This document shows positions 23,796 through 62,933 of a stretch of DNA of 64,000 nucleotides, piece after piece (the first letter of the stretch is position 1; each line of letters opens with the position of its first letter). Location of the stretch: assembly GCA_041750915.1 (NCBI GenBank), contig JBGSYJ010000285.1:848-64847 (forward strand), given 5' to 3'. The notes beneath the pieces are model-generated. The model did no database searches. It had not been told where the DNA came from and saw only the letters and a program-made list of their open reading frames with translations. The translations under genes and the position numbers were made by a program. The DNA comes from Thermoanaerobaculia bacterium (GTDB lineage: Bacteria; Acidobacteriota; Thermoanaerobaculia; Gp7-AA8).

Positions 23796-23895
23796 GTTCT
23801 TAACCGTTCATCCACTGTCCGCCCCCCCCCGAATCTAAACATTCCAGCCATCCCGTCGTACCATCAAAGAGAATACCCACCACCGGGAGGTCTGG

Positions 23896-28763: not shown

Positions 28764-31700
28764 TCATGGCATCCAGAAGTCTCTCGGATAAAGAGTCCAG
28801 AGCTTTGTTCCTTCGCCCTCGGTCTCCGTCAGATACCGATCCCAGGCTTCGAGTTGATTGTCCGCGCCGATCGCGAAGCTGATCGAGCCCGGGGCTGTTC
28901 CTTTCGAATATCCCGGAAGCATGCGAGCGTAAACGGCGTCCTTTCGGGCGAAAAGCTTCTCGGCGAGCTTCGGATCCTTCCTGAGCTCGAGAATCGACGC
29001 CCGGAATCTCCGCACCTGATCGTGTGGCTGGTTGTCCGCGATGTCGGCTGCGATTCCTTCGGCCCGCGATTCGTACGTGCCGGCCGCCCGGTTCTCCCCG
29101 AACGCGAGCGCGACTGTGTAATCACCGAGCCGTGGATCGAGCTCAGACTTCTTGAGTGTGTCGACGACGAAGCGGACGGTCTGCGGAATCTCGGGCGTTC
29201 TCTCCGCGTAGTATCCGACCTGTCCGGACTGCACGCTTCCGCGCAGGCCATTGCTGTACGCGAGACCGGCGGCCAGCGTCTTGAGGAAGACACCATGAGC
29301 GCCGTAGCCGGCATGAAGTCTCGAGGCGAGATAATCGAGCTGACGTTCACGGTCGTCAAAGTGGGAGAAGTGCACGGCCGGGGCAGAGGTGATGATGACG
29401 CCGCCCTTCATGTTCGGGGCGAGGAGCGCGACATGATCCCGGTTGCCGGGCGAGCCGTCGCGCCCTTGCAGGCGCGTGTCGATGCGGGCAGACTGGCTGT
29501 GAGACGGCGCAGGCGCAGGCTTCTCGCTGAGCGACGCAGCAAGCGTCTCGATTCGCGCGCCGACTGCTTTCTGATTCGCGCCTGAGCCGACCAGGAACAT
29601 GCGCCCGTTCCCGCGATGCGCAAGGGCGGCGCGCAGTTCTCCGAGCGCCTTCAGGGCCTCGGCCGGCGGGGTGAGCAGATCATCCCGGATTGCGCTCACC
29701 AGGTATTGCCAGTCCGCAGCGAGGCTGCCATCCGGAATGTCGCCGAGCGTCAGGTCGAGGTCCTTGTGGGCATCGGCGATGAGCGTCTTCGCCTCCGCCG
29801 AGAAAGAGTCGGGGAGCGCTCCGGAAAGCATCGTCTTGAGCTCATCGCGTTTTTTTGTGGATGCCGCTCCCGACAGTTGAGTGAAGTATTTGTTCAGCGC
29901 GTCGCGGTCGGACTCGGGAGCCTCGCGCAGCGTCCAGCGGAGACGAAGTGCGTTGTGTGCGCGTGTGAGGAACGAGTCGGCCGCGAGATACGGAGCATTC
30001 GTCTGCAGACGGTACGCAATCGCCGGGTTGTTCACCCACGATTCCTCCGAACCCTGCATCGTGTTTCGAAGACTGCTGAGCGACTGGTCGACGACGTCAC
30101 GGATGCGCGCCAGGTTCTCAGGACGCCAGTCGGGATGATGAAGAACGAGATTCATCCAGCCGATCGCGCGCGCGGCTTCTTCGGGACCAAGTCCGGCCCC
30201 TCTGATTACAAGTTCCACACGCCCGGTGCGCTGGTTCGTGGAAAAGTTCGCGTTGAGGTTGAGGATCTCTTTCCGCATCCGTTCGCTCATCTGGTCAAAC
30301 GAAACCGGTTTGCCGTTCTCGATGACGCCGACCTGCGTCATGAGCGCCGGGAGCAGAGACAGATACCGCAGCTGCTGCGGCGAGGCCACATCGGCGCGGA
30401 GGGCGAGCCCCAGCGTCACGCTCGACATGTTGTCGAAAGTCGAGGCGACGATCGGGACGTTCGCTTTGGTTTTGGCGGTGGTGAACTGCAGGGGATCGTC
30501 GAGGGTCATGGGAGGGTTGCTGACGAACGCCGGAGGGGCGACCCCGCTGGCGAGCGACTCGATCCTCGCCGACTCCGCCTCGTACTCGGCCTTGTACTTT
30601 GCGATCGCACCCTGCAGGTCCTCGAGGCCGTATTGCGCGGCCAGCCGCTCGGCCTCAGCCTGTGCCCGCGCCTCGCGTTCGCTGTTTTCCTTCTCTAAGA
30701 GGGCCGTGCTTGGCTTTACGCCGGCAGCGAAAGGAACTGAATCCGTGAGCTTCCAGCGCTTCAGTGCCTCACGCCAGATATTCTTTTCCGAGCCGAGGTG
30801 CTTGCGCATCGACGCCAGCTGTGGCGCGAGCGTCACCGATTTCCGGAAGTCCTGAGTCTTCGCGAGCAGTGTCAGCTGTTCGAGCCACCCCGAGCCGGTA
30901 CTCCGCCCACCCCACGAAGGAGGTGTGTTGACGAAATTCGCGAGACCCCGTTCCGACTCGATGATCCGGTTCAGTGCCCGCTCGTTGAATTCGGAGAGCT
31001 CAGCGGAACCATCCTCGAGTGCCGCTACGCGCTTCAGCTCGGAGATCAACCGGGTCCGGATCTCGCCGATCTTCGCCGGCTCGAGATTCGCCACGGAAAC
31101 GTTGTCGAGAATGATCGAGAAGGGATGTCCGAGATCGCTGCTGACATTGTTGAAGACCGACGTCGCTCCTGTCTCCATGACACGGGTCCGGCTGTCTACG
31201 AACATCTTGTAGACGTTCGTCGTGGCGTCGCTTGCGAACGTATCAGCGAAGAGGTTCAGCAGGAGAAAGTCTTCCGGTGTGAGCTCCCGCACCGGTGGCC
31301 ACGAGAACGCCAGCGAGCCGGGCTGCTGGTCATTGCGATTGGGAAATTCAGCGACGACGATGGCCCCCTCGGGCCCGGACTGCGGCGGAGGAAGCGGCTT
31401 CGTCGTCGTTGAAGGCCGTCCTGCGCCCGGATCGACTTCATCGAGAATCTTCGCGGTGCGCGTCAGCACCTCGTCGATGGTTACGGTCTTCGGAAACGCG
31501 ACCATGGTTCCCATGTTGCCGAGGTAGTAGTTCTCTTTGTGAAATTTGCGGATGTCTTCCGGTTGCATCGTGCGGATCCCGGATGGCGCACCGCCCGCGT
31601 TGTAGGACAGCGGGTGTGCGGTTCCGTAAAGAAGGTGACCCATACTGCGGAAGAGCACACTGTATCGATTCGCACTCGAGCTCGTCATCTCGTTGTAGAC

Positions 31701-32255
31701 CGAGCCTGTTTCTTCGAGGCGTAGCGCGCCATCTGCAGTCGTTGCGACCCCGAAGTGCCGCACTTCGCGCCGGATCTCTTCATCGCTGTAGTTCGGGTTC
31801 AGAAGGGCGTCGAGCTGACCGGCAAAGAGGTCGAAGAAGACATCTTTTCCTGCCGATGTGTTGAAGTGGTAGCTGGTCCGCCACTGCTGCACAAACGCCG
31901 TGGAGGTGGCGAGCCACATCGTGTCGAGTCCGGCAAACGTGCGCCCTTTGGTTCCCTTTCCGAGAAGGAGGTGTTCCTGCGTGTGGGGTTCTCCCTGGTC
32001 GCCGACCAGGAAGCTGTTGACCCACGTGTAGCCCTGCGGAACGGACTCGATACTGAGGTAGTCGAGAGTGAAGCCGCTTCGGACGTGCACGAAGCGGGCG
32101 CCCATTGGTGTTCCAGCGTCGTTGAGGTACACCGATTCCGCGCGGAAGCCGTGAGCCTGGTCTCCCTTTGTGAGCCTGTCGAGTTGCACCGGCGCAGAGT
32201 GTATCGGGGATGAGACCATCATGAAGAGGGAGATCAGGATCAGCGTCAGGCGCAT
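28764..32255 (-). CDS. secreted M16 (pitrilysin/insulinase) family zinc peptidase, large form
   Basis: Signal peptide and the inverted zinc motif HTQEH (HxxEH); 1163 aa. Confidence 0.8.
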   Translation of the reverse strand: MRLTLILISLFMMVSSPIHSAPVQLDRLTKGDQAHGFRAESVYLNDAGTPMGARFVHVRSGFTLDYLSIESVPQGYTWVNSFLVGDQGEPHTQEHLLLGKGTKGRTFAGLDTMWLATSTAFVQQWRTSYHFNTSAGKDVFFDLFAGQLDALLNPNYSDEEIRREVRHFGVATTADGALRLEETGSVYNEMTSSSANRYSVLFRSMGHLLYGTAHPLSYNAGGAPSGIRTMQPEDIRKFHKENYYLGNMGTMVAFPKTVTIDEVLTRTAKILDEVDPGAGRPSTTTKPLPPPQSGPEGAIVVAEFPNRNDQQPGSLAFSWPPVRELTPEDFLLLNLFADTFASDATTNVYKMFVDSRTRVMETGATSVFNNVSSDLGHPFSIILDNVSVANLEPAKIGEIRTRLISELKRVAALEDGSAELSEFNERALNRIIESERGLANFVNTPPSWGGRSTGSGWLEQLTLLAKTQDFRKSVTLAPQLASMRKHLGSEKNIWREALKRWKLTDSVPFAAGVKPSTALLEKENSEREARAQAEAERLAAQYGLEDLQGAIAKYKAEYEAESARIESLASGVAPPAFVSNPPMTLDDPLQFTTAKTKANVPIVASTFDNMSSVTLGLALRADVASPQQLRYLSLLPALMTQVGVIENGKPVSFDQMSERMRKEILNLNANFSTNQRTGRVELVIRGAGLGPEEAARAIGWMNLVLHHPDWRPENLARIRDVVDQSLSSLRNTMQGSEESWVNNPAIAYRLQTNAPYLAADSFLTRAHNALRLRWTLREAPESDRDALNKYFTQLSGAASTKKRDELKTMLSGALPDSFSAEAKTLIADAHKDLDLTLGDIPDGSLAADWQYLVSAIRDDLLTPPAEALKALGELRAALAHRGNGRMFLVGSGANQKAVGARIETLAASLSEKPAPAPSHSQSARIDTRLQGRDGSPGNRDHVALLAPNMKGGVIITSAPAVHFSHFDDRERQLDYLASRLHAGYGAHGVFLKTLAAGLAYSNGLRGSVQSGQVGYYAERTPEIPQTVRFVVDTLKKSELDPRLGDYTVALAFGENRAAGTYESRAEGIAADIADNQPHDQVRRFRASILELRKDPKLAEKLFARKDAVYARMLPGYSKGTAPGSISFAIGADNQLEAWDRYLTETEGEGTKLWTLYPRDFWMP

Positions 32256-37302: not shown

Positions 37303-37472
37303 TGTCATCCCGAGCTCGGTTGTGCGGACGGGAGGGGCGAGGGATCTCCGGCGATAGTACATAGTAAATTCGTCACTGGAGAGTCGACGTACGACGTGTT
37401 CTGGAGGCTACTATGTACCATCGCGAGAGATCCCTCGCCCCTCCCGCACACCCACGCTTGCTCGGGATGACA
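37303..37472. repeat. MITE-like palindromic element, copy 4 (with extra half-site CTCGGGATGACA at 37495-37506)
   Basis: Same termini and internal arms as the other copies. Confidence 0.85.
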
Positions 37473-40589: not shown

Positions 40590-42713
40590 TCAGCGGATCG
40601 AGGTGATCACCCAGTTTGCCCCGCGGCGAGCGAGGCTGATCGTCCTCTCTCCGCCAACGCGCTGTTCGCTGCCGGCGCGGGGAGTGGCCACTCTCGTCTC
40701 GGTTGCACGGACGGTGGCCGACTGGCCATCCCCGGAGATCTCCACGCTCCTGATCTCGAGTGTCAGACTCTGCGATCGGAGGGAGGAGAAGCCCGATTCG
40801 ATCCGTCGGCGGTCAGCTGAAGGATAGACGGAGAGGTAGGCGTCGGCGTCGAGCGCTTCCGCTGCGTTCACGTAGCGCTGGATCGCGTTCCGCACGCGCG
40901 GCTCTTCGGAGACTGTGGGACGGGGAGTATCCACAGGCGTTTCAGCCTTCTTTCTTTTCTCGAGCTCAGCCTGTGCCTGATCGCGGCGTTCCTGTTCTCT
41001 CTTCTGTCTCTCCGCCTCGGCCAGTGCGGCAGCGGCGGCAGCGGCGTTCGCATCGTTCGTCTGCTGGACGAGTCGGCGTTTCGTTTCATCCCGTGCGGCG
41101 ACTGCCGCTTCGTCGTAGATTCGCAGCGCCGAGAGAAAACTTCCGCCGGCCGCGTCCATTCTTCCTGATCTGAACTGGCTTTCGGCACGCCGTTCCGTAT
41201 CTTCGGCGCGACGAAAGAGCACCGCTGCCAGGTCCCGGGCTCCCGCGCTGGCGGCCGCGGTCTTGGCAGCCAGCATCCTGATTCGTGAGCGTTCGGCGAC
41301 GCTCCGCCCGGGCTCCGTTTGTGGGTTCTGTTCGGCAGCCTCTCCGACGACAGTTTCCTCGGGTGCTGTCGTCGTCGTGACGACAGTCGTCGTCTCAGGC
41401 TCGGCGGGACCGGAGGTCTCCGGCTTGACGAGAAGCGTTGCGACCGATGCAGTGTCGGAAGGCGGGGCCGAAGATGTCTCTGCCGGCTTTCGGTTCTCTA
41501 CGACGTCTGCGGGCCCCTGCCTGAAGAACGTGATACCGGCGACCCCGACGATGATCAGAAGAGCGGCGGCCCAGATCACGGGTGATGGCCGGCGGCGCTC
41601 AGCAGATGGTCCGATCACAGTCGCCCCGGAGTCCTGTGCACCGTCGACTGCGGCGGAATCGAACTCGGTAGCCTCCCCATCGTCGATCGATGCATCGATG
41701 GTCGAAGCCATCGGCATCGGGGTGTTGGATGGCTGAAAACGGCGGTTCAGCCGTTCCTGTGCGCTGGGCGTCGGCGTCGGGTGATCGGGCAGTGCGCTTT
41801 CCGATGTTGATTGCACGAGCTCCATGAATGCTGCCGCCTCGACCATGTCCGGCCTCGGGAGCTTCGCCTGACTCGATTCGAGGGTCCGGAGCAGGGTCGT
41901 CGCATCGGGAAAGCGATCGTCTCTCTTCTTCTGAAGTGCGTGGAGAACGAGTTCCCTGACGTCTTCTGAAATCCGACCTTCAGGATCCGACTCTTCGAAC
42001 GGAATCGGCGGCTGGAACAGATGCGCTGCGGCGAGCTGGTGAGCGGTGTCCCCTCGGATCGGAAGTTGTCCGGTCAGCATCTGATAGAGAACGACCGCGA
42101 GGGAGTAGAGGTCGGTCCTTCCATCGAGCGGGAGCCCGTCGGACATCAGCTGCTCGGGTGACGAGTACTTGAACTTTCCGATGAAGACGCCGGTCTTGGT
42201 CACTCCGTCGTCGGCATCGAGTGCCTTGGCGATTCCGAGGTCGATCAGTTTGACGAGAAGCCGGCCGTCGTGATCGGTGGTGAGCATGATGTTTTCCGGA
42301 GAGATGTCTCGGTGGATCACCCGTTTCCGATGGAGGTACTCGAGCGCTTCGAGACTCTGATGTGCGATCTCGAGGGCCAGGGGCACCTCGAGCGGGCCGC
42401 TGAGCTTGATCCAGTCCGCGAGACTTACACCTTCGATGTACTCCATGACGATGTACGCCGTCATCTCCTCGTCGACGGCGTAATCGAAGATCAGACAGAT
42501 ATTGCGGTGCCGGACCCTGGTGATGAGCTGCGCTTCCTGGGCGAAGCGGCGCTGGAGATCGGGATTGTCCGCGCCCTGGGTGCGCATGACCTTGATGACA
42601 CGGATTTCATCGAGGAGGCCATGATGCACCTTGTAGATGGCCCCCATCCCTCCTTCTCGCAGCTTGGAGAGAATGCGGTATTTCCCATCGATGAGGGTGC
42701 CGGTTTCGGGCAA
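40590..42713 (-). CDS. Ser/Thr protein kinase with Pro-rich linker, TM segment and NTF2-like C-terminal domain
   Basis: Kinase subdomains GGMGAIYKV, HRDISPENIM and DLGIAKA. TTG start with CAGGAGG upstream. Confidence 0.85.
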   Translation of the reverse strand: MPETGTLIDGKYRILSKLREGGMGAIYKVHHGLLDEIRVIKVMRTQGADNPDLQRRFAQEAQLITRVRHRNICLIFDYAVDEEMTAYIVMEYIEGVSLADWIKLSGPLEVPLALEIAHQSLEALEYLHRKRVIHRDISPENIMLTTDHDGRLLVKLIDLGIAKALDADDGVTKTGVFIGKFKYSSPEQLMSDGLPLDGRTDLYSLAVVLYQMLTGQLPIRGDTAHQLAAAHLFQPPIPFEESDPEGRISEDVRELVLHALQKKRDDRFPDATTLLRTLESSQAKLPRPDMVEAAAFMELVQSTSESALPDHPTPTPSAQERLNRRFQPSNTPMPMASTIDASIDDGEATEFDSAAVDGAQDSGATVIGPSAERRRPSPVIWAAALLIIVGVAGITFFRQGPADVVENRKPAETSSAPPSDTASVATLLVKPETSGPAEPETTTVVTTTTAPEETVVGEAAEQNPQTEPGRSVAERSRIRMLAAKTAAASAGARDLAAVLFRRAEDTERRAESQFRSGRMDAAGGSFLSALRIYDEAAVAARDETKRRLVQQTNDANAAAAAAALAEAERQKREQERRDQAQAELEKRKKAETPVDTPRPTVSEEPRVRNAIQRYVNAAEALDADAYLSVYPSADRRRIESGFSSLRSQSLTLEIRSVEISGDGQSATVRATETRVATPRAGSEQRVGGERTISLARRGANWVITSIR

Positions 42714-42848: not shown

Positions 42849-43352
42849 TCAGCGTGAGAGAGGATCCGCCATGAGAGCCAGCGTCGCTGTTGAGACTCGC
42901 GAGCAGGTCTGTCCAGGGGATCTGTGGCGGGACCAGCTGATTCCGCGGAGGGGCCGGTCACCGGTTCCGTCACCTTCGACCAGATGCACTGTCCCCATGC
43001 TGACGGCGATGATCGGGATTCCAATCCTCTCTGCTTCTTTTCTGTCGTGGGCAGACAGATCGCGGCAGCAGCGCGGATGGGTGTGTGCAATTGCGATCGT
43101 CCCGGGCGGGATGACTCCGCGGTGTGAGGTTTTCTGAAACTCTGCGGACTGATTCCAGAGCTCGCAGCGGATCATGCCGTCAGAATCGCGCACGAGGAAT
43201 GCCCCGACCTCAGCATGCCCGTTTCCATATCCGGATCGGGAAGCCAGGTCCGCAAGGAGCGGCATGAGCTCTTCGACGCGCAGCCGATCTTCACCATGGA
43301 TGGGCGACGAGAGCAGGAGTGCGGCGATCGAGCACGCGAGCAGGATTCGCAT
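42849..43352 (-). CDS. secreted protein with JAMM/MPN+-like metalloprotease motif
   Basis: Signal peptide followed by AIAHTHPRCCRDLSAHD, which fits HxHx7SxxD, with an upstream Glu (ELWNQ). Confidence 0.45.
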   Translation of the reverse strand: MRILLACSIAALLLSSPIHGEDRLRVEELMPLLADLASRSGYGNGHAEVGAFLVRDSDGMIRCELWNQSAEFQKTSHRGVIPPGTIAIAHTHPRCCRDLSAHDRKEAERIGIPIIAVSMGTVHLVEGDGTGDRPLRGISWSRHRSPGQTCSRVSTATLALMADPLSR

Positions 43353-43452
43353 GCATCGAATCTGCGGCGCGCGTCGCTCGTGGTCGCAGGCAAACCCTAA
43401 GAGAACCGTAGGAATACGGTGGGATCAGGTGGAGGGGGATTTAGAATGGGGG

Positions 43453-43649
<197 letters not shown>

Positions 43650-43655
43650 AGCCAT

Positions 43656-44300
43656 ATGCGCGTTCGATTCAACGACTTCGTATTCGATGCTGAGCGTCGT
43701 GAACTGACGCGCAGCGGAAGCCTTGTCCATTTGACACCGAAGAGTTTCGATCTTCTTGCCGTGCTGATTGCGAATCATCCGCGAGCGGTGCGCAAGGAAG
43801 AGCTCTACGAGCAGCTGTGGCCCGACACTTTCGTCGAATATGCAAACCTCAACAACCTGATCTCGGAGATTCGGGGCGCACTCGGTGACAGCGAAAGAAG
43901 GATGATCCAGACCAAGACGCGCTTCGGGTTCGCCTTCGCTGCCGTGACCGAGTTGGAAGGCAACGGATCGGCCGCGACGAGGGATCGCCTTTTTCGAGTC
44001 AGCGCCGGTGGTAAGACGTATGAACTGCGGCCCGGGAGAAATCTGATCGGACGCGAGCTGGACTGTGCGATCGTGATCGACTCGCCTTCAGTCTCGCGCT
44101 ACCACGCGGTCATCGAAGTTGCCGGACCCGTGGCAATGATCGAAGATCTCGGCAGCAAAAACGGCACCTTCGTCCGGGCGCATCGCATCACGGCGGCTGT
44201 CGAATTGCGCGATCGAGACGAGATTGAAATCGGCCGCACCCTTTTGCGCTTCCGGATCTTCGACCGCCGTGCGGCCACGGTGAGCGACCCGAGACGCTGA
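43656..44300 (+). CDS. transcriptional regulator: OmpR/PhoB-type winged helix (trans_reg_C) fused to FHA domain
   Basis: The N-terminus resembles the ToxR/CadC DNA-binding domain (VRFNDFVFDAERRELTR...VHLTPKSFDLLAVL). The C-terminal FHA carries GRNLIGRE...SRYHAVIE...NGTFV. The listed ORF start is inside the heptamer repeat. Confidence 0.75.
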   Translation: MRVRFNDFVFDAERRELTRSGSLVHLTPKSFDLLAVLIANHPRAVRKEELYEQLWPDTFVEYANLNNLISEIRGALGDSERRMIQTKTRFGFAFAAVTELEGNGSAATRDRLFRVSAGGKTYELRPGRNLIGRELDCAIVIDSPSVSRYHAVIEVAGPVAMIEDLGSKNGTFVRAHRITAAVELRDRDEIEIGRTLLRFRIFDRRAATVSDPRR

Positions 44301-44428
44301 ACGGGGGCGCCAGGGGTCGGAGCGTGGCGTTTGCCATCGGGTTGGATACAGTTCAGTTGCAGAAGAGCCCCGGGAAGCCCGCAGGCGGTATGATCCGAAG
44401 ACGATGCTTCTGCATCGCGGAGGTTCCG

Positions 44429-45721
44429 ATGACTCGACGCATGCGAATCGGCAACTGGGACTTTGCTCCCGACCTTCATCTGCTAAGCCGGGAGGGCACA
44501 GAGATCCGGCTGGAACGGAAGCAGGCCGAGGTGTTGTCGGCACTTGCCGCCCGTGCGGGCGAGGTGCTCACCCGCGACGAGTTGCTGAGCATCGTCTGGG
44601 GCGAGATCAGCGTGACGGAAGAAGTACTGACGAACGCGATCTACAGTCTGCGGCGGGCCTTCGAGGACGACTCGAGAAGGCCGGAGTACATCCAGACAAT
44701 CCCTCGCCGCGGCTACCGTCTGGTGGCCGAGGTGGCCGAAACGAAGTCCCCGGAACGAACCGCACAGCCTCCCGTGAAGCGAGGCCGCGCACTTGTGGCC
44801 GCGGCTGTGATCGTTGCATGCATCCTCGCGATCTCGGGGTTTCTCTATGGATCGCTCCGCGATGCCGCCCGCTTGGAGGTTGCCGCAATCATCGCGGAAG
44901 CCGAGGCCGAGCTCGATCGCGGAACTCCGGAGTCCGTCCGCCGTGCCCTCGATCTCTACGAGCGCGCCATTGCCGCGGACTCCTCCGATGCCACGGCGCT
45001 CGCGGGCCGCGCGCTCGTCCTCGCAGAACTCCCCGCACCATCGGGTGCTTCGCGCGCGTCTTCCCGCTCCAGCGCAGAGCGCGACGCTGAGCGGGCCTTG
45101 CGAATCGATCCCGAGCTCTCCGATCCTCATGTCGTCCTCGGCACGATCCGGCTGGCCGAGTGGAACTGGCCGGCGGCGGAAGGTCATCTCCGTCGCGCCG
45201 TCGAGGCCGGCCCCCGCTCTGCCCGCGCACAAGCAGCGCTCGCCGAGTATCTTCTGCTCGCGGGGCGAGCGGAGGAAGCTCGAAGGTCCGCTGTCCTGGC
45301 CTCGAGGCTTGCGCCTGATTCCGTTCGCGTCCGACTCAGCACCGGTTTCGTTCACACGATGCTTCGCGACGACGCGAGCGCAATCGCCGATTACCGGCAC
45401 GTGCTATTGCGCGATCCGGGACATGCATCGGCGAGACGACAGATCGAGAAGCTGACGACCAGGAATGACGGCGAGGATTCGAGTCCCGAAGCGCTCCTCC
45501 GAAACGTTGATTCGCTGTTGAGAAAAGGGGAGATCCGCCCGGCAATCGTGGCTGGAATGTTTGCCGAGGCAGGGGAAACCGATCGCGCGCTGGAATGGCT
45601 CGAGCGCGCTCGCGACCAGAAGGATCTCTCGATCCTTTTGGTTCGCCTCGACGACCGATGGCAGAAACTGCATGCCGAGCCGCGACTCCAGGCCATCCTG
45701 GCGAGCGTCGGGCCGCGCTGA
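44429..45721 (+). CDS. membrane-anchored winged-helix (trans_reg_C) regulator with TM segment and TPR domain (ToxR/CadC/EmbR-like)
   Basis: wHTH motif NWDFAPDLHLLSREGTEIRLERKQAEVLSALA...TIPRRGYRL, TM ALVAAAVIVACILAISGFL, and TPR-like helices. GCGGAGG lies before the ATG at 44429. Confidence 0.7.
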   Translation: MTRRMRIGNWDFAPDLHLLSREGTEIRLERKQAEVLSALAARAGEVLTRDELLSIVWGEISVTEEVLTNAIYSLRRAFEDDSRRPEYIQTIPRRGYRLVAEVAETKSPERTAQPPVKRGRALVAAAVIVACILAISGFLYGSLRDAARLEVAAIIAEAEAELDRGTPESVRRALDLYERAIAADSSDATALAGRALVLAELPAPSGASRASSRSSAERDAERALRIDPELSDPHVVLGTIRLAEWNWPAAEGHLRRAVEAGPRSARAQAALAEYLLLAGRAEEARRSAVLASRLAPDSVRVRLSTGFVHTMLRDDASAIADYRHVLLRDPGHASARRQIEKLTTRNDGEDSSPEALLRNVDSLLRKGEIRPAIVAGMFAEAGETDRALEWLERARDQKDLSILLVRLDDRWQKLHAEPRLQAILASVGPR

Positions 45722-45852
45722 GCAGCATCGCGTCGCAGCTCATTCGCCGTCCCCGAGCAACTCCTGATCGAATCCTGATCTTTCCCTCAGGATTCTGAAC
45801 CCTCCTCTCTCTCAAAGTGTCTCTGAGAAACGAGACAGAGGAGGTCCTTCTG

Positions 45853-48231
45853 ATGCGCAACGTGCCGCTGCTGACTGTCGTGTTCGCAGTTCTTCTCGTC
45901 CAGGGAGCGTCCGCCGCGTCCGAGGGGATGCTCGAAACCGAGCCAGGGGTCGGGATCTACTGGCGAGCTCTCGGCCAGGGCGCCGAGACCGTGATCATCC
46001 CGGGAGATTTTCTCTTCGGCGGTGATATGGACGTTCTCGCAAACGGCCGGCGGGTGGTGCTCTATGACATGCGGAACCGTGGGCGCTCGCGCCGTGTGAC
46101 TGACCCGTCGCTCCTCACGCTCAACGGTGACGTGCGTGACCTCGAAGCTCTCCGGCGAGAGGTGGGGGCCGAGAAATTCTCGACGATCGGGTACTCGGTC
46201 CTGGGCAAGCTGGTCATTCTCTATGCCCTGCAGTATCCCGAGCGCGTGGAGAGAATCGTTCAGATCGGTCCGGTCGGAATGAGATTCGGGGCGGCGATGC
46301 CTCCGGTCTACGACAACACGCGCGAGGACGTCATGGACTCCGATGCGCTTGCCGCTATACGCCAGCTCCGTTCCACCGGCTTTCACGAAACGAATCCGCA
46401 GGAGTATTGCGAGCGGGAGTGGCTCGTCACGCGCGTTCGTCTCGTTGGCGATCCGTCGATGGCGGAAAAGCTGAAGTCCTATTGCGCCATGGAGAACGAG
46501 TGGGCCACCAACTTTGCCTTTCACCTCCAGCATCACTTTGCATCCGCTCGTGAGACGCATGTCAGCCCGGCCGAAGTCCGCGATGTGACGTCTCCGGTTC
46601 TCACGGTGCACGGCACACTCGACAGGAATGCGCCGTATGGTGCGGGGCGCGAATGGGCGGCGACGATACCCGATGCGAGGCTGCTGACCGTGGAGGGTGG
46701 CGCGCATCAGGTGTGGTTGGACGATCCGAAGATTATCGACGAGATCGCCGAGTTTCTCGACGGGTCGTGGCCTGCACGCTCCGAGGATCTCGACATCTCT
46801 TCGGAAGAATGGCTCTCGCAGCTTCGGGGATGGGAGTTGCTCACCAGAGTGCGCGAAGCGACCGATGATGGCGGCGTGGACTTCTCCACATCCCCAGTGA
46901 AAGTCGGGTTCTCAGGAGCCCTCTATCCACATTCCCAGTCGGCGAGGCCGGTTCCGCCCTTCACTCCTTTTCCGACAACGGACGATGTGATTCTCGATCT
47001 CGCATCGAACAGGATCGCTGCACGGCATGAGATGAAATGGCCGAATTTCACTTCGCGGGTCAGGATCGTCGCCAGAGGAGATGAGGGGTTCGAGGTCGCT
47101 GGCGAAAGCTCTCGTGCCTCGACGCTCGGGGTGAGTGCCGACGATCTGCGACTCCGATATATGCGGCGACTTCCGGCAATCCTGATCGAAGAGGCGCTGA
47201 GAGACCCGGCTTCGATCCGTCTTCTCGGAACCCGCGATCTCCGGCGGGACCGCTTCAGCCTTGTGAATGTCGAAGTCGAAGATTCTCGGCTGACGTTGTG
47301 GTTTGATAAGGACGAGAGGCTTACCCGCACGACACGGCTCATTCACGACGGCCTGCTGGGCGACGTGCTCGAGGAGACGATCTATTCATCCGAAGAGTCC
47401 TCGCGTGGATGGCCGCGGCGCGTTCAGGTCTTCTTCAACCGCACGCTGGCGGCCGAGTTCGCGGTCCAGACGCGCGAAGCGCCGAACGCTGAAGAACTGC
47501 GCCAGGCGTTCGAGCTTCCCGCGGAGGGTCTTTCTCCGGCAAGTGCAAGCGAGCCGCTCGACATCCGCAGACTCGCAGATCGTGTCTGGCTCGTAACGGG
47601 GATCGGTGGGCGCGACTACCGCAGTCTCGTCGTCGAGCGGGACGACGCCCTGCTTCTTGGTGAAACGCCGCTCAGCAGGGAGGCGATGGAATCAGTTCTC
47701 GATCTTCTCTCGAAGCATTTTCCGGATAAGTCTGTACGAACTGCCGTGGTCACGCACCATCACTTCGATCACGCAGGCGGGGTGACGGCGCTCATGCGGG
47801 CCGGTGCGAAGATCGTGACGGCGCCGGGGAATGCGGCGTTCTTCCGCGAGATCGCAGCTGCACCTCGGACGATCGACGGAGGTTCCCGAATTCCGCGCGT
47901 GGAACTGGAGCTCGTGCTCGAGGATCGGATCGCTCTCCCGGGCTCCGGCCCGGCCGTCGAGGTGCATCGGATCGAAGCCGCGGGCCACGCGGAAGAAATG
48001 CTCTTTCTCTGGCTCCCGAAAGAACGGATTCTATTTCAGGGAGATCTGTTCGTGCACTTTCCTGACGCGCCCGAAAGAGCGAGGCCGCAGGCGGTCTCGC
48101 TCCTCGAGAGCGTCACAAGCCGATCGCTGCCCGTGGACCGGATCGTCGGTGTTCATGGAGAAGTTGCCACGCTCGACGATCTCCGGAGGGCGGTAGAGCG
48201 AGCGGGTAGGCCAGGAGTGCCTGGCCAGTAA
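45853..48231 (+). CDS. secreted alpha/beta-hydrolase fused to metallo-beta-lactamase-fold domain
   Basis: The signal peptide follows a GAGGAGG ribosome-binding site. Nucleophile elbow GYSVLG in the N-terminal ~300 aa; MBL motif VVTHHHFDHAGG (HxHxDH) in the C-terminal ~250 aa. Confidence 0.7.
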   Translation: MRNVPLLTVVFAVLLVQGASAASEGMLETEPGVGIYWRALGQGAETVIIPGDFLFGGDMDVLANGRRVVLYDMRNRGRSRRVTDPSLLTLNGDVRDLEALRREVGAEKFSTIGYSVLGKLVILYALQYPERVERIVQIGPVGMRFGAAMPPVYDNTREDVMDSDALAAIRQLRSTGFHETNPQEYCEREWLVTRVRLVGDPSMAEKLKSYCAMENEWATNFAFHLQHHFASARETHVSPAEVRDVTSPVLTVHGTLDRNAPYGAGREWAATIPDARLLTVEGGAHQVWLDDPKIIDEIAEFLDGSWPARSEDLDISSEEWLSQLRGWELLTRVREATDDGGVDFSTSPVKVGFSGALYPHSQSARPVPPFTPFPTTDDVILDLASNRIAARHEMKWPNFTSRVRIVARGDEGFEVAGESSRASTLGVSADDLRLRYMRRLPAILIEEALRDPASIRLLGTRDLRRDRFSLVNVEVEDSRLTLWFDKDERLTRTTRLIHDGLLGDVLEETIYSSEESSRGWPRRVQVFFNRTLAAEFAVQTREAPNAEELRQAFELPAEGLSPASASEPLDIRRLADRVWLVTGIGGRDYRSLVVERDDALLLGETPLSREAMESVLDLLSKHFPDKSVRTAVVTHHHFDHAGGVTALMRAGAKIVTAPGNAAFFREIAAAPRTIDGGSRIPRVELELVLEDRIALPGSGPAVEVHRIEAAGHAEEMLFLWLPKERILFQGDLFVHFPDAPERARPQAVSLLESVTSRSLPVDRIVGVHGEVATLDDLRRAVERAGRPGVPGQ

Positions 48232-48428: not shown

Positions 48429-48625
48429 GGACTGGAGCTGCCCCAATGGCTGCCCGGCTGAAGCTGCGACCCCGACGCTTTCTTAGGCGACGGCTTACCG
48501 GACTGGAGCTGCGACCCCGACGGCTTACCGACGGCTTACCGCCGACGGCTTACCGGACTGAAGCTGCGACCCCGACGGCTTACCGCGCCGACGGCTTACC
48601 GCGACCCGACGGCTTACCGGATCCC
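48429..48625. repeat. nested tandem repeat array (CGACGGCTTACCG x7; GGACTGRAGCTGCGACCCCGAC x3)
   Basis: Read directly in the intergenic region between convergent genes. The units and gaps are too short and irregular for a CRISPR array. Confidence 0.8.
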
Positions 48626-48690: not shown

Positions 48691-50442
48691 TCAGTACCCG
48701 AGAATCAGCTCGATGCGCCGGTTCCTCGCGCGGCCCTCCGCGCTGTCGTTCTCGGAGATCGGCACCAGCTCACCGCGCCCTATGCTTGTGATGCGCGCGG
48801 GATCGATGCCGGCTGTGACGAGCAGATCCCTGAGGCCATCCGCGCGGGCCTGAGACAACTGCAGGTTGTCGTCTTCGCCCCCGCTCGAGTCGGTGTGACC
48901 CTCGATGGCGACTCGGACGTCGGGGTTCGCCGCCAGTTGCTCGGCAATCCGTTGCAGAACACCGCGGCTCTCCCAGCTGATCTGGCTCCGTCCGGTTCTG
49001 TAGAAGAGCCCTGGAATCGTCACGACCAATCCCCGCGCCTCGAAGCGTGCTTCGACGACCGCTGCGAGCGACCGCTGGATCGATGCAAGACGTTCCTGCT
49101 GGCTCGTACGCCGCTGGCGCTCCTCTCGCACTTTAGCCAGCTCTCCTTCGGCCGTCGTCACCCGCTCTCGCAGTTTCCTGCTCTCCGCGCTGGTTCCGCT
49201 CAGGGTCACGCTGACGTCTGCGAGAAGCTTCCTGTATGAGTCTTCGAGATCCCTGCGAAGACGTTCGCCCTCATCCCGTTCGCCCCGCAGCCGCTCGTTC
49301 TCGATTTCGCGCTCCGTCAAGGCACGCGAGACCGCCACGAACTGCGTACGCTCCTGAGCCAGGGTCTGCTCGAGCCGGACGACCTCCGGATGCTTCGATG
49401 GTTCGACCGCGGCCGCGACTGTGGTGAGGACGATTCCCGCGGGAACCCTCAAGACGAGTACGGCCAGCAGGAATCCAATGGTGGCCATTGCCACCCGCAT
49501 GCGGCGGGCACGAAGCAGGCCGGCGAATGCAGGCTTCCGTTTGCCCGGAGTAGCGATCGATGCAGCCTCGAAGAGGTCGAGCGCCAGATCGCGTGCCGAA
49601 TCGTAACGCTGCTCGCGATCCTTGGCGAGGCATCGATCAAGGATGCGTTGAAGCATCGCGTTGAGGCGCGAGCCGCCGACAGAGATTCGGGGAGCTGGCC
49701 GATGAACGATGTTGTGCATCGTTTCCGCATTCGTCGAACCGGCAAAGGGAGCCTGCCCGGTTATCGACTCGTGGATGATGCATCCGAGCGAGAAAATGTC
49801 GGTTCGGTGATCAAGCGCAAAGCCTTCGATCTGCTCAGGCGACATGTAGCCGACTGTTCCCAGCAGTGTTGACGGCTCGGTGAGCGTCCTTCGTCCCGAG
49901 GGGGATCGCACCTCGTCGCTATGCTGCACGCCCACCAGTTTTGCGACGCCGAAGTCGAGGACTTTCGCATGGCCCTCGGACGTGATCATGATGTTGTCGG
50001 GCTTGAGGTCGCGATGGACGATCCCTCGCGCATGCGCCTTGCCGAGCCCTTCGGCGACGCGGCCCAGCTCTGCAAGCGTCGACGCGAGCGGAGGCTCCTC
50101 CCCCAGCCAGACATCGAGCGTTGCTCCCTCGATGTACTCCATTGCAATGTAATGGATCACCGAAACGTGGCCCGACGCGTCGACGACCGGCGCTTCACCC
50201 ATCTCGTAGATCGTCACGATCGAAGGATGATTCAGAGCGGAGGCAGCTTTCGCTTCAGTGATGAAGCGTTGCACGCGGAGAGGATCGGACGTGAGACCCG
50301 TCGGCAGAATCTTGATGGCGACGAGTCGGTCGAGCTCGACGTCGAGGGCAAGGTAGACCTCGCCCATGCCACCGGCGCCCAGAAGCTTCCGGATCTGGTA
50401 GCGTCCGACGGACGACTCTTCCGCTAACGATGGCCCGGTCAT
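48691..50442 (-). CDS. Ser/Thr protein kinase fused via TM segment and coiled coil to a C-terminal OmpA/MotB-like peptidoglycan-binding domain
   Basis: Kinase motifs GAGGMGEVY, HRDLKPDNIM and DFGVAKL; a central TM helix; C-terminal OmpA-C-like block VAIEGHTDSSG...RNRRIELIL. Strong GGGAGGAG ribosome-binding site. Confidence 0.8.
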   Translation of the reverse strand: MTGPSLAEESSVGRYQIRKLLGAGGMGEVYLALDVELDRLVAIKILPTGLTSDPLRVQRFITEAKAASALNHPSIVTIYEMGEAPVVDASGHVSVIHYIAMEYIEGATLDVWLGEEPPLASTLAELGRVAEGLGKAHARGIVHRDLKPDNIMITSEGHAKVLDFGVAKLVGVQHSDEVRSPSGRRTLTEPSTLLGTVGYMSPEQIEGFALDHRTDIFSLGCIIHESITGQAPFAGSTNAETMHNIVHRPAPRISVGGSRLNAMLQRILDRCLAKDREQRYDSARDLALDLFEAASIATPGKRKPAFAGLLRARRMRVAMATIGFLLAVLVLRVPAGIVLTTVAAAVEPSKHPEVVRLEQTLAQERTQFVAVSRALTEREIENERLRGERDEGERLRRDLEDSYRKLLADVSVTLSGTSAESRKLRERVTTAEGELAKVREERQRRTSQQERLASIQRSLAAVVEARFEARGLVVTIPGLFYRTGRSQISWESRGVLQRIAEQLAANPDVRVAIEGHTDSSGGEDDNLQLSQARADGLRDLLVTAGIDPARITSIGRGELVPISENDSAEGRARNRRIELILGY

Positions 50443-50547
50443 GAGTGGCAGTTCTCCTCCCGAGTACGGATCTCCGACTTACAGGTTGCGCGAAGCGCGG
50501 GCAGAAGTCATAGGAGTGGCGGAGTGTTTGAAGCTTTGTTGCAGGAA

Positions 50548-50757
50548 GTAGACAGGAGACAGTAGACAGTAGACAGTAGACAGGAGACAGTAGACAGTAG
50601 ACAGGAGACAGTAGCCCACCCGCCCCGGGTACTGGCTCGCTCCTCCGGCGTTCCAGCTGGCAGGGAAGGCTTTACAGCAAACTGCGTCTCCCGACGGGTG
50701 TGTTCGCTGAAGGGACGGGCGGGCTACTGTCTCCTGTCTACTGTGTACTGTCTACTC
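50548..50757. repeat. composite 7-mer inverted repeat, copy 2 ((GTAGACAG)n...82-bp spacer...(TACTGTC)n)
   Basis: Same architecture and the same GCCC(A/G)CCCGCCC / GGGCGGGC junctions as copy 1. Confidence 0.85.
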
Positions 50758-54889: not shown

Positions 54890-54893
54890 GCAT

Positions 54894-55044
54894 GTGGCAG
54901 GGCCCTCCGAGGCCCTGCCTTGTCTGAATAGTAAGGATGAATGCAGTTGGAGCATTCATCCAGCCGCGTCAGTCAGAGCTCCAGCCAGGTGTCGTACATC
55001 TTCACTGCTCGCCGAGGCAGGGCCTCGGAGGGCCCTGCCACATG
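54894..55044. repeat. REP-like array (GTGGCAGGGCCCTCCGAGGCCCTGCC ... TGGAGCATTCATCC ... GGCAGGGCCTCGGAGGGCCCTGCCACATG)
   Basis: Same family as the array at 34733-34912. Confidence 0.8.
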
Positions 55045-55060
55045 GCGCTACAATCTGCTG

Positions 55061-56080
55061 ATGCCGGCGACGATTGAATCCTTCCTGCCCGAGGAGGAGG
55101 GTGCTTCTTTCTACGAGCTGGTTACATCTGATACTCAGCGGACCGCTTCAACCATCCGTCAACTGGCAAACCGCGGCCCCGTCCGCCTCTTCGTGGCGAT
55201 CGGCGAGACGGGTCCCGTCGCGCGACTCGTCACGCAAATCTCACCGGCGTATCGCGATGGCGAGGGCAACCCGCTCGGTCTCATAGGATTCTTCGACGCA
55301 CAGAACGACCCGGATGCGGTGTCTGAGCTCTTTGACGCCGCGGCGGCCACGCTCCGGCAATATGGCTCCCGTAAGATGATCGGGCCGATCGACGGCGACA
55401 CGTGGCACCGATACCGGGTCAATGCGGGGCCGTTCGAGACACCTCCCTTTCTCCTCGAGCCGTGGAATCCGCCTTACTACGCTGAACTGTGGGAACGCTC
55501 GGGATTCACGATTCTCGAGACGTACTCATCGAGACGCATCGATGATGTGGAGCCTGTGGCCGAGCGACTGTCAGAGAAATTCGCCAGCGCACGAAATGGC
55601 GGCTACGTCTTCGAGCCCTTCGATCGAAGCGACTTTCAGCGGACACTCGAGCGCATCTACAGGCTGTCGCTCGAGATCTTCCGCGACAACTATCTGTACT
55701 CGGACATTTCGTTCGACGACTTCTGCTCGCTCTATTACGGAGCCGATCGGCTCATCGAGGACGATTCCATCTGGTTCGCGAGGGCGCCTGACGGCAGCGA
55801 CGCAGGCTTCGCGTTCACCTATCCCAACCGCACGCCGAAGGACCCGCACGGCGATGCGTTGAACTTCAAGACCCTCGGAGTTCTGCCCGCTCACCGCCGC
55901 GGTGGCACCGGCGCCGCCCTGATGTTCTGTGGTTACGAGGCGGGACTGCGAAGGGGCTTTCAGGCTGTGAATCACTGCCTGATGCGCGCGGGCAACCCAT
56001 CCGAGAAGCTCGACTCAGGTCACGGGAAACCATTCCGCGAGTATTTTCTCTACGAGAGGGCGGTGAAGAGTGAAGGGTGA
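55061..56080 (+). CDS. GNAT-fold acyltransferase-like protein (FemAB/BioF2-like or N-acyl amino acid synthase-like)
   Basis: C-terminal LGVLPAHRRGGTGAALM resembles GNAT motif A. No Shine-Dalgarno sequence precedes the start, and the family assignment is tentative. Confidence 0.45.
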   Translation: MPATIESFLPEEEGASFYELVTSDTQRTASTIRQLANRGPVRLFVAIGETGPVARLVTQISPAYRDGEGNPLGLIGFFDAQNDPDAVSELFDAAAATLRQYGSRKMIGPIDGDTWHRYRVNAGPFETPPFLLEPWNPPYYAELWERSGFTILETYSSRRIDDVEPVAERLSEKFASARNGGYVFEPFDRSDFQRTLERIYRLSLEIFRDNYLYSDISFDDFCSLYYGADRLIEDDSIWFARAPDGSDAGFAFTYPNRTPKDPHGDALNFKTLGVLPAHRRGGTGAALMFCGYEAGLRRGFQAVNHCLMRAGNPSEKLDSGHGKPFREYFLYERAVKSEG

Positions 56081-61580: not shown

Positions 61581-62933
61581 CTACCGTGGAAACGCCTCGA
61601 TAATCTCTGCCTGTTGCAACGCCGCGATCAGGGCAGCTGAAGCAAGCGCCAGGAGAAACGAGATCCCGCTCCAGCCGCGAGGGGACTCGCCCTCGAGACG
61701 CATGCGGCCCAGCGATGCATTGACAACAGTGATGAGAATGGCAGCGAATGCAATTGCGCGAAGCGTGTCGAAGGATGGGGCTCCTCCCACGAGCATCCAC
61801 ACCGGAATTCCGACAACGAGCGCCGCGACTGCCGCGATCACGCCGGCTGCGATCGCATCGCCCCATCGCTGGAACAGGTTCAGACGGATCCGCCCATCCC
61901 ACCAGACGAGTGCGAGCACCATGATCGTGGCCATCAGATATGGCGCGTAAAAGAATCCGTACCGGCCGGTGAGATTGGCGGCGAGCAGCACGATGAACGG
62001 GACGAGGATGGCGTGGGTGATCACCCGCACACGGAGTGGCTCTCCTTCGCGTCCCATGACGAATGCCCGGACGAAGACGAAGGCGACGATGGCGAGGAGC
62101 ACCGGCAGCGCCCATCGTCGCGACCCGAGAGACCATGTTGCGAAGGTGAAGAGAACGACGGCGATCATGCCGCCGGCGTTGAACGAACGAAACCGCCAGA
62201 CGATGAGCGCCATGAGCGCAAAGATCGCGAGGAAGCTGATGTTCTGGTAGGCGATCTCGGCGAGCGGCTTCGTCGTGATCTTCTGAAGAACGAAACAGAC
62301 AGCAATCGGGATGAACAGGTTGTCCGTTCCGCGCAGTGAAATCGCTTCGAAGCCTGTCACCAGCATTGCGACGAGGAGCGCCGAGAGCACCGTCACTGGA
62401 CGTGGCAGATCCGTCATCAGCAGCATCGGCAGATGAACCGCCAGGAATGCAACCACGAGGAAGACGAGAGAGCCTTCCACGCTCTTGTGTTCGTCTTCGA
62501 CCTCATAACGAAGACGCCCGTATCTGCTGCCGATCAGTGCTGCGAACGCATCGGCTACTGCGAGCACGAGCAGCGCGCTCACGTAGAGCCAGGGCTGATC
62601 CGCCGCGATCAGGAACACGATGAAGATCGCGAGTGGATAGTATTCGCTCCCTCTGCTCTTCCGCTCGACTCCGTGAAGGCTGCGCAGGAGGCCGAACCGA
62701 CCTCCGAGGAAGAAGATCGCGGAGAGCGACGCTGTAAGCATCAGCACTACGAGCGGAGATCGGATCAGAAAGGGGAGGGAGAGCCCGACCAGCCCACCTC
62801 CAACGTGGACCAGCTTCCTCGTCCATTCGGGCTTTGCGTTCCCGACTCGAATCCAGATCTCGGCAGAAACAAGAAGGATGGCGAAGACGCTGGCTATGAT
62901 CGCCGCCCCCGTAATGTCGGAGTTTGAGATCAC
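61581..62933 (-). CDS. polyprenol (dolichol/phytol)-kinase-like CTP-dependent kinase domain fused to an extra polytopic membrane domain
   Basis: VADAFAALIGSRYG (DxxAxxxGxxxG) and KSVEGSLVF (KxxEG) motifs of the CTP_transf_1 kinase subfamily lie in the N-terminal half, followed by about 8 more TM helices. Confidence 0.55.
   Translation of the reverse strand: MISNSDITGAAIIASVFAILLVSAEIWIRVGNAKPEWTRKLVHVGGGLVGLSLPFLIRSPLVVLMLTASLSAIFFLGGRFGLLRSLHGVERKSRGSEYYPLAIFIVFLIAADQPWLYVSALLVLAVADAFAALIGSRYGRLRYEVEDEHKSVEGSLVFLVVAFLAVHLPMLLMTDLPRPVTVLSALLVAMLVTGFEAISLRGTDNLFIPIAVCFVLQKITTKPLAEIAYQNISFLAIFALMALIVWRFRSFNAGGMIAVVLFTFATWSLGSRRWALPVLLAIVAFVFVRAFVMGREGEPLRVRVITHAILVPFIVLLAANLTGRYGFFYAPYLMATIMVLALVWWDGRIRLNLFQRWGDAIAAGVIAAVAALVVGIPVWMLVGGAPSFDTLRAIAFAAILITVVNASLGRMRLEGESPRGWSGISFLLALASAALIAALQQAEIIEAFPR

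Follow-up and report, generated by a model that had tools for sequence, protein, structure and literature searches.

A putative envelope-signalling locus of Thermoanaerobaculia centred on a Ser/Thr kinase with an OmpA-like ectodomain

Introduction

Monoderm bacteria monitor their peptidoglycan (PG) with PASTA kinases, while to our knowledge no equivalent Ser/Thr-kinase route for PG monitoring has been established in Gram-negatives. How diderms monitor PG is still poorly understood (bioRxiv 10.1101/2023.05.05.539549). The 64,000-nucleotide (nt) stretch of DNA analyzed here, referred to as the window, comes from a Thermoanaerobaculia bacterium (Acidobacteriota; contig JBGSYJ010000285.1, positions 848 to 64,847) and contains a gene at 48691-50442 in which a Ser/Thr kinase is joined to an OmpA-like domain. 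This locus raises the question of whether such a protein could couple the state of the cell wall to Ser/Thr phosphorylation and, if so, what would read and execute the signal.

The kinase gene lies in a compact three-gene locus found in uncultured Thermoanaerobaculia, all parts of which are predicted: an OmpA-like PG binder as input, a Hanks-type kinase as transducer, a regulator with winged helix-turn-helix (wHTH) and FHA domains as reader, a JAMM-like peptidase as output, and a promoter of the extracytoplasmic function (ECF) sigma type. We put a rough probability of 0.55 on the reading that membrane kinase, FHA regulator and JAMM-like peptidase make up an envelope-signalling circuit, analogous to the PASTA kinases and to PknH/EmbR, and the module is probably one for cell-wall signalling in Gram-negative Acidobacteriota. 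Should this be confirmed, the OmpA-like domain, so far a structural anchor, would also be a signalling input.

A Ser/Thr kinase fused to an OmpA-like domain

The window has a GC content of ~61% throughout, and the kinase locus shows no compositional break. The kinase-OmpA gene is an open reading frame (ORF) of 583 amino acids (aa) with an ATG start that encodes a bitopic receptor-type Ser/Thr kinase, and Pfam finds Pkinase and OmpA domains in it, an architecture shared by 20 orthologue clusters. An initial sequence-only reading had placed the ORF at exactly 48691-50442 without giving its strand, which is the minus strand, and both peptides that it quoted, HTDSSG and NRRIELIL, are found in the protein. 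Its assignment of a eukaryotic-like Ser/Thr kinase also holds. The Pkinase profile (PF00069) matches aa 15-281 (49600-50400, minus strand) with an E value of 9e-45 and 153.6 bits against a cut-off of 31.7, and the full catalytic signature of a Hanks-type Ser/Thr kinase is present. The GxGxxG motif (G22/G24/G25), K44, E63, H143-R144-D145 and N150 are invariant in 20 orthologues, as are D163-F164-G165, P202-E203 and the activation-loop residue T188. Given these invariant residues, the kinase domain, predicted to be cytoplasmic, should be catalytically intact and active, and regulated by phosphorylation of the loop. An AlphaFold2 (AF2) model of the protein, built on alignment A1 (20 orthologues with 45-84% identity to the query), has a mean predicted local distance difference test score (pLDDT) of 79; its kinase fold is confident and the activation loop (aa 169-193) is disordered.

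A fusion of this kind could be an artefact: the ORF could be there by chance, the assembly could be wrong, or two genes could have been joined by a frameshift. We give this explanation practically no weight, since the same full-length architecture is found in ~20 independent 90%-identity clusters from NCBI, JGI, ENA and Logan, with linker motifs conserved across them, and since an identical protein is encoded by an independent Logan contig (L001).

Predicted membrane topology, stalk and PG-binding head

Only one hydrophobic region was found in the protein, at aa 315-347 (Kyte-Doolittle maximum 2.29). Together with basic juxtamembrane residues the single transmembrane (TM) segment is assigned to aa 312-346 (49405-49509, minus strand), and the AF2 model has a TM helix at 308-332. 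The N-terminal flank holds six K/R and no D/E, and the C-terminal flank is neutral to acidic. All 20 orthologues have exactly one TM region in the same place, with 2-8 K/R and 0-2 D/E in the N-terminal flank. Since the ATP-dependent kinase is on the N-terminal side, the C-terminal half is predicted to be periplasmic, and with it the OmpA-like domain in all 20 orthologues; as a prediction, this agrees with the proposal of the sequence-only reading that the C terminus lies outside the cytoplasm.

Following the membrane, the AF2 model contains two very long helices (aa 352-413 and 419-459) and a confident alpha/beta domain (aa 464-582). The helices form a predicted periplasmic stalk (aa 352-459; 49066-49389, minus strand) whose hydrophobicity power spectrum peaks at a period of 3.5 (38.1) versus 5.6 at 3.6, which indicates the heptad periodicity of a coiled coil rather than a simple amphipathic helix. 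A single TM helix and a long coiled coil had been proposed for this part of the protein, and both are recovered. With 108 helical residues the stalk would be about 9-16 nm long, according to whether its two helices are folded back on one another. Six stalk residues are invariant in the 20 orthologues (R396, E400, S402, Y403, R404 and L406), forming the motif LExSYRxLL, or R396..E400-x-S402-Y403-R404-x-L406.

The OmpA-like domain occupies aa 464-582 (48697-49053, minus strand). Its Pfam match (PF00691, aa 481-575) covers profile positions 2-98 of 98 with an E value of 3.7e-21 and 75.7 bits against a cut-off of 27.2, so the C-terminal OmpA-type domain that had been proposed is well founded. Matches at E<=1e-5 were obtained to 55 solved OmpA-like chains, with end-to-end alignments to the solved PG-binding domains of ArfA/Rv0899 (M. 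tuberculosis, E 5e-19), YiaD, OprF, AbOmpA, MotB, Pal and TssL in which the pattern GHTD...LSxxRA...NRR is kept. Eight residues of the domain are invariant in the 20 orthologues (E514, H516, D518, N526, S530, R533, R575 and R576) and N574 is nearly so. D518, R533 and the NRR residues (N574-R575-R576), which are the PG-contact residues, align with the same residues of ArfA and of a Capnocytophaga OmpA domain. In complexes of AbOmpA and Pal, the carboxylate of diaminopimelate is held by two residues, the GHTD Asp and the LSxxRA Arg. From this conservation the OmpA-like head is predicted to be competent for PG binding.

An important question is whether PG binding would itself be the signal. The main alternative is that the OmpA-like domain only tethers or immobilizes the kinase on the sacculus and that the signal is perceived elsewhere, for example where a periplasmic partner binds the LExSYRxLL stalk motif, or from cues in the membrane or cytoplasm, with FHA signalling unchanged. 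All characterized OmpA-like domains matched here are structural PG anchors, and apart from the residues for PG binding no element of the ectodomain is conserved more strictly than R396..E400xSYRxL, the stalk motif specific to this kinase family. The conservation of the PG-contact residues fits anchor and sensor roles equally, though, and the JAMM-like protein is the only candidate periplasmic partner conserved in the locus. We regard a purely anchoring role as somewhat unlikely, and continue with the reading in which the OmpA-like domain provides the input.

A narrow family of kinase-OmpA fusions

A whole-protein search returned the identical protein on a 65-kb NCBI contig and 18 further full-length Pkinase+OmpA clusters at 46-83% identity, and every orthologue cluster with a name (among ~20) is from Thermoanaerobaculia or Acidobacteriota. 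The C-terminal half was searched exhaustively against 1.84 billion representatives, followed by local phmmer on the 150 nearest. A kinase was present in 2 of these 150, the query's own cluster and P0257. The recurrent relatives of the stalk and OmpA module are envelope proteins of ~600 aa with a DUF4398-coiled-coil-OmpA architecture that match query aa ~347-581, and among the proteins of <=473 aa returned by a search with the C-terminal half, DUF4398+OmpA proteins were likewise the nearest relatives. They differ from the kinase-OmpA protein in having no kinase (148 of the 150 nearest representatives are without one) and no LExSYRxLL motif. Of the 149 remaining nearest relatives of the C-terminal half, just two have this motif: P0257, the second match with a kinase, and P0244 (229 aa). 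In paralogous kinases of the clade, TolB-like beta-propellers or TPR arrays take the place of the stalk and OmpA domain. A profile scan of genome contigs with the orthologue alignment returned generic HRDLKPDN kinases, with one full-length family member among the matches listed.

The restriction of named clusters to Acidobacteriota and the presence of a kinase in only 2 of the 150 C-terminal relatives indicate that the kinase-OmpA fusion is a narrow, lineage-restricted family, as judged from these searches. Automated annotation at JGI already names both domains, and in the literature searched no Ser/Thr kinase was described whose ectodomain is OmpA-like. Receptor kinases with a cell-wall-binding ectodomain are already known; what appears to be new here is a receptor Ser/Thr kinase in which that ectodomain is OmpA-like.

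A conserved trio of genes

Ten distinct orthologous loci, the window included, were compared for synteny. In 8 of them, with kinase identities of 39-83%, the kinase gene is followed by a convergent Trans_reg_C+FHA gene of 213-227 aa and then by a small gene of 141-204 aa that is divergent from the FHA gene. These loci are the window, L002, L003, L006, L007/L008, L089 (the most distant orthologue), L090 (83% identity) and L091. The trio in the window consists of the JAMM-like gene at 42849-43352 (minus strand), the regulator gene at 43656-44300 (plus strand) and the kinase gene at 48691-50442 (minus strand). The sequence-only reading had named an FHA-domain regulator 4 kb from the kinase gene as a likely reader of phosphothreonine. 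That gene exists (Trans_reg_C and FHA, E 4e-20), and the presence of a wHTH+FHA gene beside the kinase gene in 8/10 loci argues strongly for the predicted partnership.

The distance between the two genes in the window is due to a lineage-specific insertion at 44324-48231 (plus strand), identified by Pfam and by its lack of a counterpart elsewhere. It consists of a Trans_reg_C-TPR regulator gene (44324-45721, plus strand) and a gene for an abhydrolase + metallo-beta-lactamase protein (45817-48231, plus strand). Neither is found at any other orthologous locus, L090 with its 83% identity included, which indicates that the 4-kb separation is secondary and that, on the evidence of gene order, direct adjacency of the FHA and kinase genes is the ancestral state. 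The Trans_reg_C-TPR protein, found only in this genome, has an OmpR-type wHTH and is receiver-less. Its gene starts 24 nt after the wHTH-FHA gene, with which it is probably co-transcribed, and together the two proteins hold pieces of an EmbR-like wHTH/TPR-like/FHA architecture.

Gene context beyond the trio is informative at L003 (GCA_036385045.1, DASVLC010000419.1, 3617-21761), a Thermoanaerobaculia metagenome-assembled genome in which the trio sits between mreB-mreC-(mreD)-pbp2-rodA and ftsZ-ftsA-ftsQ-murC. This arrangement is reminiscent of the M. tuberculosis cluster fhaA-fhaB-pstP-rodA-pbpA-pknA-pknB and, as a single case, is suggestive of a cell-wall role. It also raises the alternative that the kinase acts mainly on the cell-wall machinery, with MreB/MreC, PBP2/RodA and FtsZ/FtsA as its main substrates and the FHA protein as an adaptor or secondary target. 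In addition to the position of the L003 gene, directly downstream of the first of these clusters and upstream of the second, there is a YkuD L,D-transpeptidase near the L006 gene and a D-Ala-D-Ala-ligase-like gene near the L004 gene. However, the flanks of the nine loci other than L003 are unrelated, and no neighbours except the wHTH-FHA and JAMM-like genes are conserved family-wide. We therefore consider this substrate range decidedly unlikely, and retain the regulator and the JAMM-like protein as the candidate partners.

The FHA regulator and the JAMM-like protein

The regulator is a predicted phosphothreonine-dependent partner of the kinase with an OmpR-type wHTH and an FHA domain, and the NCBI gene call corresponds to the 214-aa form. 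The FHA profile (PF00498) scores 72.4 bits against a cut-off of 20.7, and the phosphothreonine-binding residues G-R132, S147-R-Y-H150 and N169-G-T are conserved in all orthologues. Its best match in the PDB is the FHA domain of EmbR from M. tuberculosis (2fez, E 5e-14), and the match of the wHTH to EmbR is weak. At only 214 aa and with no BTAD match in Pfam, the protein lacks the wHTH+BTAD+FHA combination of EmbR/SARP regulators. At its C terminus, every orthologue has the conserved tail A-[TA]-T-[VI]-[ST]-D (T208 in the window). We speculate that this tail might be a phospho-acceptor or, by analogy with GarA-type switches, an intramolecular ligand of the FHA domain.

Divergent from the FHA gene, the third gene of the trio (42849-43352, minus strand) encodes a protein of 167 aa with a signal peptide and nearly invariant cysteines, and is the predicted output of the module. 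The motif E48...H90-x-H92-x7-S100-x2-D103, corresponding to a JAMM metal site, is invariant in 11 clusters (P0390-P0400). It was found in six orthologous loci, and the JAMM-like gene accompanies the FHA gene at each of the latter's 8 loci (six by this motif check, L090 and L091 by gene order). With the Prok-JAB profile, whose cut-off is 25 bits, three orthologues reach 23.9-24.4 bits and the window protein 14.1 bits. An AF2 model (pLDDT 81, predicted template modelling score 0.75) has PfJAMM1, AF2198, CSN5 and BRCC36 as its top Foldseek matches, with probabilities of 0.99-1.0, weak E values (>=3e-3) and TM-scores of 0.37-0.62. We read the protein as a putative secreted JAMM-like (JAMM/MPN+) metallopeptidase. 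A periplasmic JAMM/MPN+ enzyme, as predicted here, is unusual for this fold, and two members of the family have lipobox-like sequences.

The JAMM-like gene is followed on its own strand, after 135 nt, by a second Ser/Thr kinase gene (40590-42713, minus strand), which encodes 707 aa with a single TM segment at about aa 379-397 and an extracytoplasmic region of ~300 aa that has no Pfam match.

Candidate promoter and regulatory sites

Upstream of the kinase gene, the sequence AAC-N16-CGTA (50465-50487, minus strand) is invariant in a 9-locus alignment; it starts 45 nt upstream of the start codon and its CGTA ends 22 nt before it. AAC-N16/17-CGTA is present in 9/9 usable kinase upstream regions and begins 39-45 nt upstream of the called start in 8 of them, the distance in L007 being 24 nt. 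The two loci without FHA and JAMM-like neighbours also have it. As background, AAC-N16-CGTA occurs in the window 6 times per 128 kb. The ECF promoter consensus has AAC at -35 and CGT(A/C) at -10 with a spacer of ~16 nt, CGTA being the sigmaW-type -10 element (PMC5758882). The motif is thus predicted to be an ECF-sigma-type promoter, which would place the kinase gene in an envelope-stress-type regulon. A scan for sigma-70 promoters and intrinsic terminators around the kinase gene gave nothing informative. The only other window match to the extended form AAC[AC]T-N14-CGTA is at 23838-23860 (plus strand), 35 nt upstream of an ORF at 23896-24672 (258 aa, no Pfam match) that may belong to the same sigma regulon.

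Farther upstream of the kinase promoter, CTGAAACAAA (window 50534-50544) and CCCTGAGACTTC (window 50504-50516) are conserved. These motifs, CTGCAACAAAG and CTCCTATGACTTC in alignment A4, make up a candidate operator or activator site at 50504-50544 (minus strand). The divergent intergenic region between the FHA and JAMM-like genes contains TTCCTTAGCG-N4-CCTGCGACT in 8/8 loci, with CTTAG and C.T..G as invariant columns; in the window this is TTCTCTTAGGG-TTTG-CCTGCGACC upstream of the JAMM-like gene (43382-43405, minus strand), a candidate regulator-binding site or promoter. A CCTG[AC]GACT element in this intergenic region resembles one upstream of the kinase gene. The likeness tentatively suggests an operator common to both regions, the motif being short.

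A proposed signalling circuit

These features can be combined into a mechanism for the proposed circuit, in which the kinase would be a receptor in the inner membrane. The OmpA-like domain would bind the PG layer non-covalently, and its engagement, or the loss of it, would shift dimerization through the stalk and thereby alter trans-autophosphorylation of the activation loop at T188. The FHA domain of the regulator would then read the phosphorylated kinase, and the regulator would in turn be phosphorylated, as in PknH/EmbR. The regulator would control the divergent gene for the secreted JAMM-like metallopeptidase and possibly the kinase gene as well, and an ECF sigma factor would drive expression of the kinase under envelope stress.

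A more far-reaching version can be formulated, in which the three genes are a self-contained PG-surveillance circuit of diderms. The kinase would act as a coiled-coil 'ruler', reporting the engagement of its OmpA head with the sacculus as a measure of the distance from inner membrane to PG or of the availability of free stem peptides. This would feed a phosphothreonine/FHA switch on a receiver-less OmpR-type regulator and, through it, a periplasmic JAMM-type metallopeptidase whose targets in the cell wall might, for instance, be isopeptide-like bonds of stem peptides or PG-protein links. We consider this version unlikely; if true, the kinase would be the first sensor kinase with an OmpA domain, and the peptidase the first JAMM enzyme of the periplasm to have a role in the cell wall.

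Several observations weigh against the circuit even in its simpler form. The OmpA-like domains of MotB, TssL and Pal are anchors and not sensors. The FHA and JAMM-like neighbours are missing at 2 of the 10 orthologous loci (L004 and L005), and the context of cell-wall genes is clear at one locus only. The JAMM assignment is borderline in both its Pfam scores, which are below the cut-off, and its Foldseek E values and TM-scores. In the window, the second Ser/Thr kinase gene adjoins the trio and is closer to the FHA gene than the kinase-OmpA gene is; outside the window it is retained at the locus in L090 alone, the closest relative, with 92% identity over 93 aa. Finally, no ECF sigma factor, anti-sigma factor or PP2C phosphatase was found among ~40 window ORFs scanned.

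Comparison with known systems

The kinase-OmpA protein had been described as a Gram-negative analogue of the PASTA kinases, which is appropriate as a functional analogy and not as family membership. In common with PknB, PrkC, StkP and Stk1 it is a bitopic Hanks-type kinase with an activation-loop Thr, a single TM segment and an extracytoplasmic module for PG binding, which is predicted here, and FHA proteins act as readers in the same pathways. It has no PASTA match in Pfam, however, and its score with the PASTA kinase model NF033483 is 284.5 against a cut-off of 450, over aa 13-297 only. Its ectodomain consists of a coiled-coil stalk and an OmpA-like domain, which, since the host is a diderm, would be periplasmic, unlike in the PASTA case. 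The ligand differs as well: in solved relatives, the OmpA-like domain binds stem peptide within the intact sacculus, as opposed to soluble muropeptide or lipid II.

PknH/EmbR of M. tuberculosis likewise pairs a membrane Ser/Thr kinase with a regulator that has an OmpR-type wHTH and a C-terminal FHA domain, and its output is cell-envelope genes. Phosphorylation of EmbR by PknH requires the FHA domain of EmbR, which activates cell-envelope genes (PMC4601284). The regulator described here differs in its length of 214 aa and in being without the BTAD that defines SARP/EmbR, the kinase-OmpA ectodomain is unrelated to that of PknH, and the predicted output is a secreted JAMM-like peptidase instead of arabinosyltransferases. 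A parallel among Gram-negatives is PghK/PghR of Shewanella, in which an inner-membrane kinase with a periplasmic module binding cell-wall glycans is a proposed sensor of PG damage (bioRxiv 10.1101/2023.05.05.539549). PghK/PghR is a histidine kinase/response regulator pair with a CBM9 sensor, though, and has no homology to the kinase-OmpA system.

In the layout of its membrane and periplasmic parts, the protein resembles MotB/PomB, the long form of TssL, YiaD and ArfA, all of which have an N-in single TM segment, a periplasmic linker and a C-terminal OmpA-like domain (E 1e-12 to 5e-19). It is distinguished from them by a cytoplasmic part that is a protein kinase of 300 aa instead of a short tail or DotU domain, by a stalk that is a long heptad-repeat helix, and by the lack of flagellar or type VI secretion system (T6SS) genes nearby. 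Its NCBIfam scores fall short of every family-specific cut-off, with MotB/MotD at 50-75 bits versus 283-301 and type_VI_ompA at 77.3 versus 139.8. Weak similarity to TssL, MotB and MADS6, below the NCBIfam thresholds, together with matches of the PADLOC models PD-T4-6 and mad6 to the kinase domain, could be taken to mean that the protein is part of a larger machine, either stator-like or T6SS-like with control by threonine phosphorylation (cf. PpkA/Fha1), or of an anti-phage kinase system. We consider this very improbable and reject the defence, T6SS and flagellar readings. The matches are far below the family cut-offs or extend over a generic kinase or OmpA domain only, as in the case of PD-T4-6 and mad6, and neither the window nor the orthologous loci contain genes for T6SS, flagella or defence. 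The FHA, JAMM-like and TPR proteins have no PADLOC match, and the other proteins of the repeat-bounded block described below have only a weak TAP-like match.

Heptamer arrays

Two heptamer-array palindromes are found in the window, and the sequence-only reading had treated the segment between them as a single repeat-bounded block containing the kinase and FHA genes. Palindrome A (43453-43649) has the structure (AGTAGAC)n-GCCCGCCC-spacer-GGGGCGGGGGC-(TACTGTC)n and ends 7 nt before the FHA ATG, and palindrome B (50547-50756) is immediately upstream of the conserved kinase promoter region. Each consists of (AGTAGAC)n and a GC clamp, a spacer of 98-112 nt, and a second GC clamp followed by (TACTGTC)n. 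The 16-mer AGTAGACAGTAGACAG has 23 matches in the arrays at <=2 mismatches, where 0 are expected. The arrays are thus physically real, but the block is not a functional or mobile unit, since the repeats are not conserved with the module and the conserved JAMM-like gene lies outside; 2 of the 4 genes inside the block are the lineage-specific insertion. The arrays are missing from the orthologous loci L002, L003, L006, L007, L089 and L091, and L090 has three degenerate heptamer copies only, next to the FHA start codon. This absence rules them out as conserved operator sites of the module.

The same strain was also assembled independently from short reads, and there a 6955-bp contig (L001) begins and ends inside the two arrays; this breakage at both suggests that they are multi-copy in the genome or hairpin-prone. 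Elements of this type are widespread, the exact array having been found in at least 120 metagenome contigs with GC contents of 0.3-0.7. Array polarity was checked in 80 fetched metagenome loci (L092-L171): 20 of these have the same -/+ palindrome, (ACAGTAG)n-spacer-(CTACTGT)n, and none has the opposite polarity. A related spacer of 57-59 nt is present in either orientation in ~12 high-GC contigs. Each heptamer unit holds TACTGT, a -10-like TAnnnT hexamer. A search of Rfam with the heptamer repeats gave no matches, and we reject their being a known RNA. The arrays are reminiscent of the STRR heptamer repeats of cyanobacteria.

Other features of the window

Short direct repeats (48440-48620) fill the 460 bp that separate the convergent hydrolase and kinase genes, GACGGCTTACCG about seven times and GGACTGGAGCTGCGACCCC about four times, and no intrinsic terminator was detected there. 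Of the large ORFs, three have no Pfam match at E<=1e-4: 28764-32255 (minus strand, 1163 aa), 9750-11405 (plus strand, 551 aa) and 61581-62933 (minus strand, 450 aa). The second of these is overlapped by an antisense ORF of similar length, which makes the true coding strand ambiguous.

Two further inverted repeats were noted. A 64-nt repeat at 37303-37366 / 37409-37472, between the M3 peptidase and DUF72 genes, is 83% complementary and has a 42-nt loop. The other is a perfect 30-nt repeat, CATGTGGCAGGGCCCTCCGAGGCCCTGCCT, at 54891-54920 / 55015-55044 with 94 nt between its arms, and it spans the end of the gap downstream of a LacI-family gene and the start of an ORF at 54941-56080.

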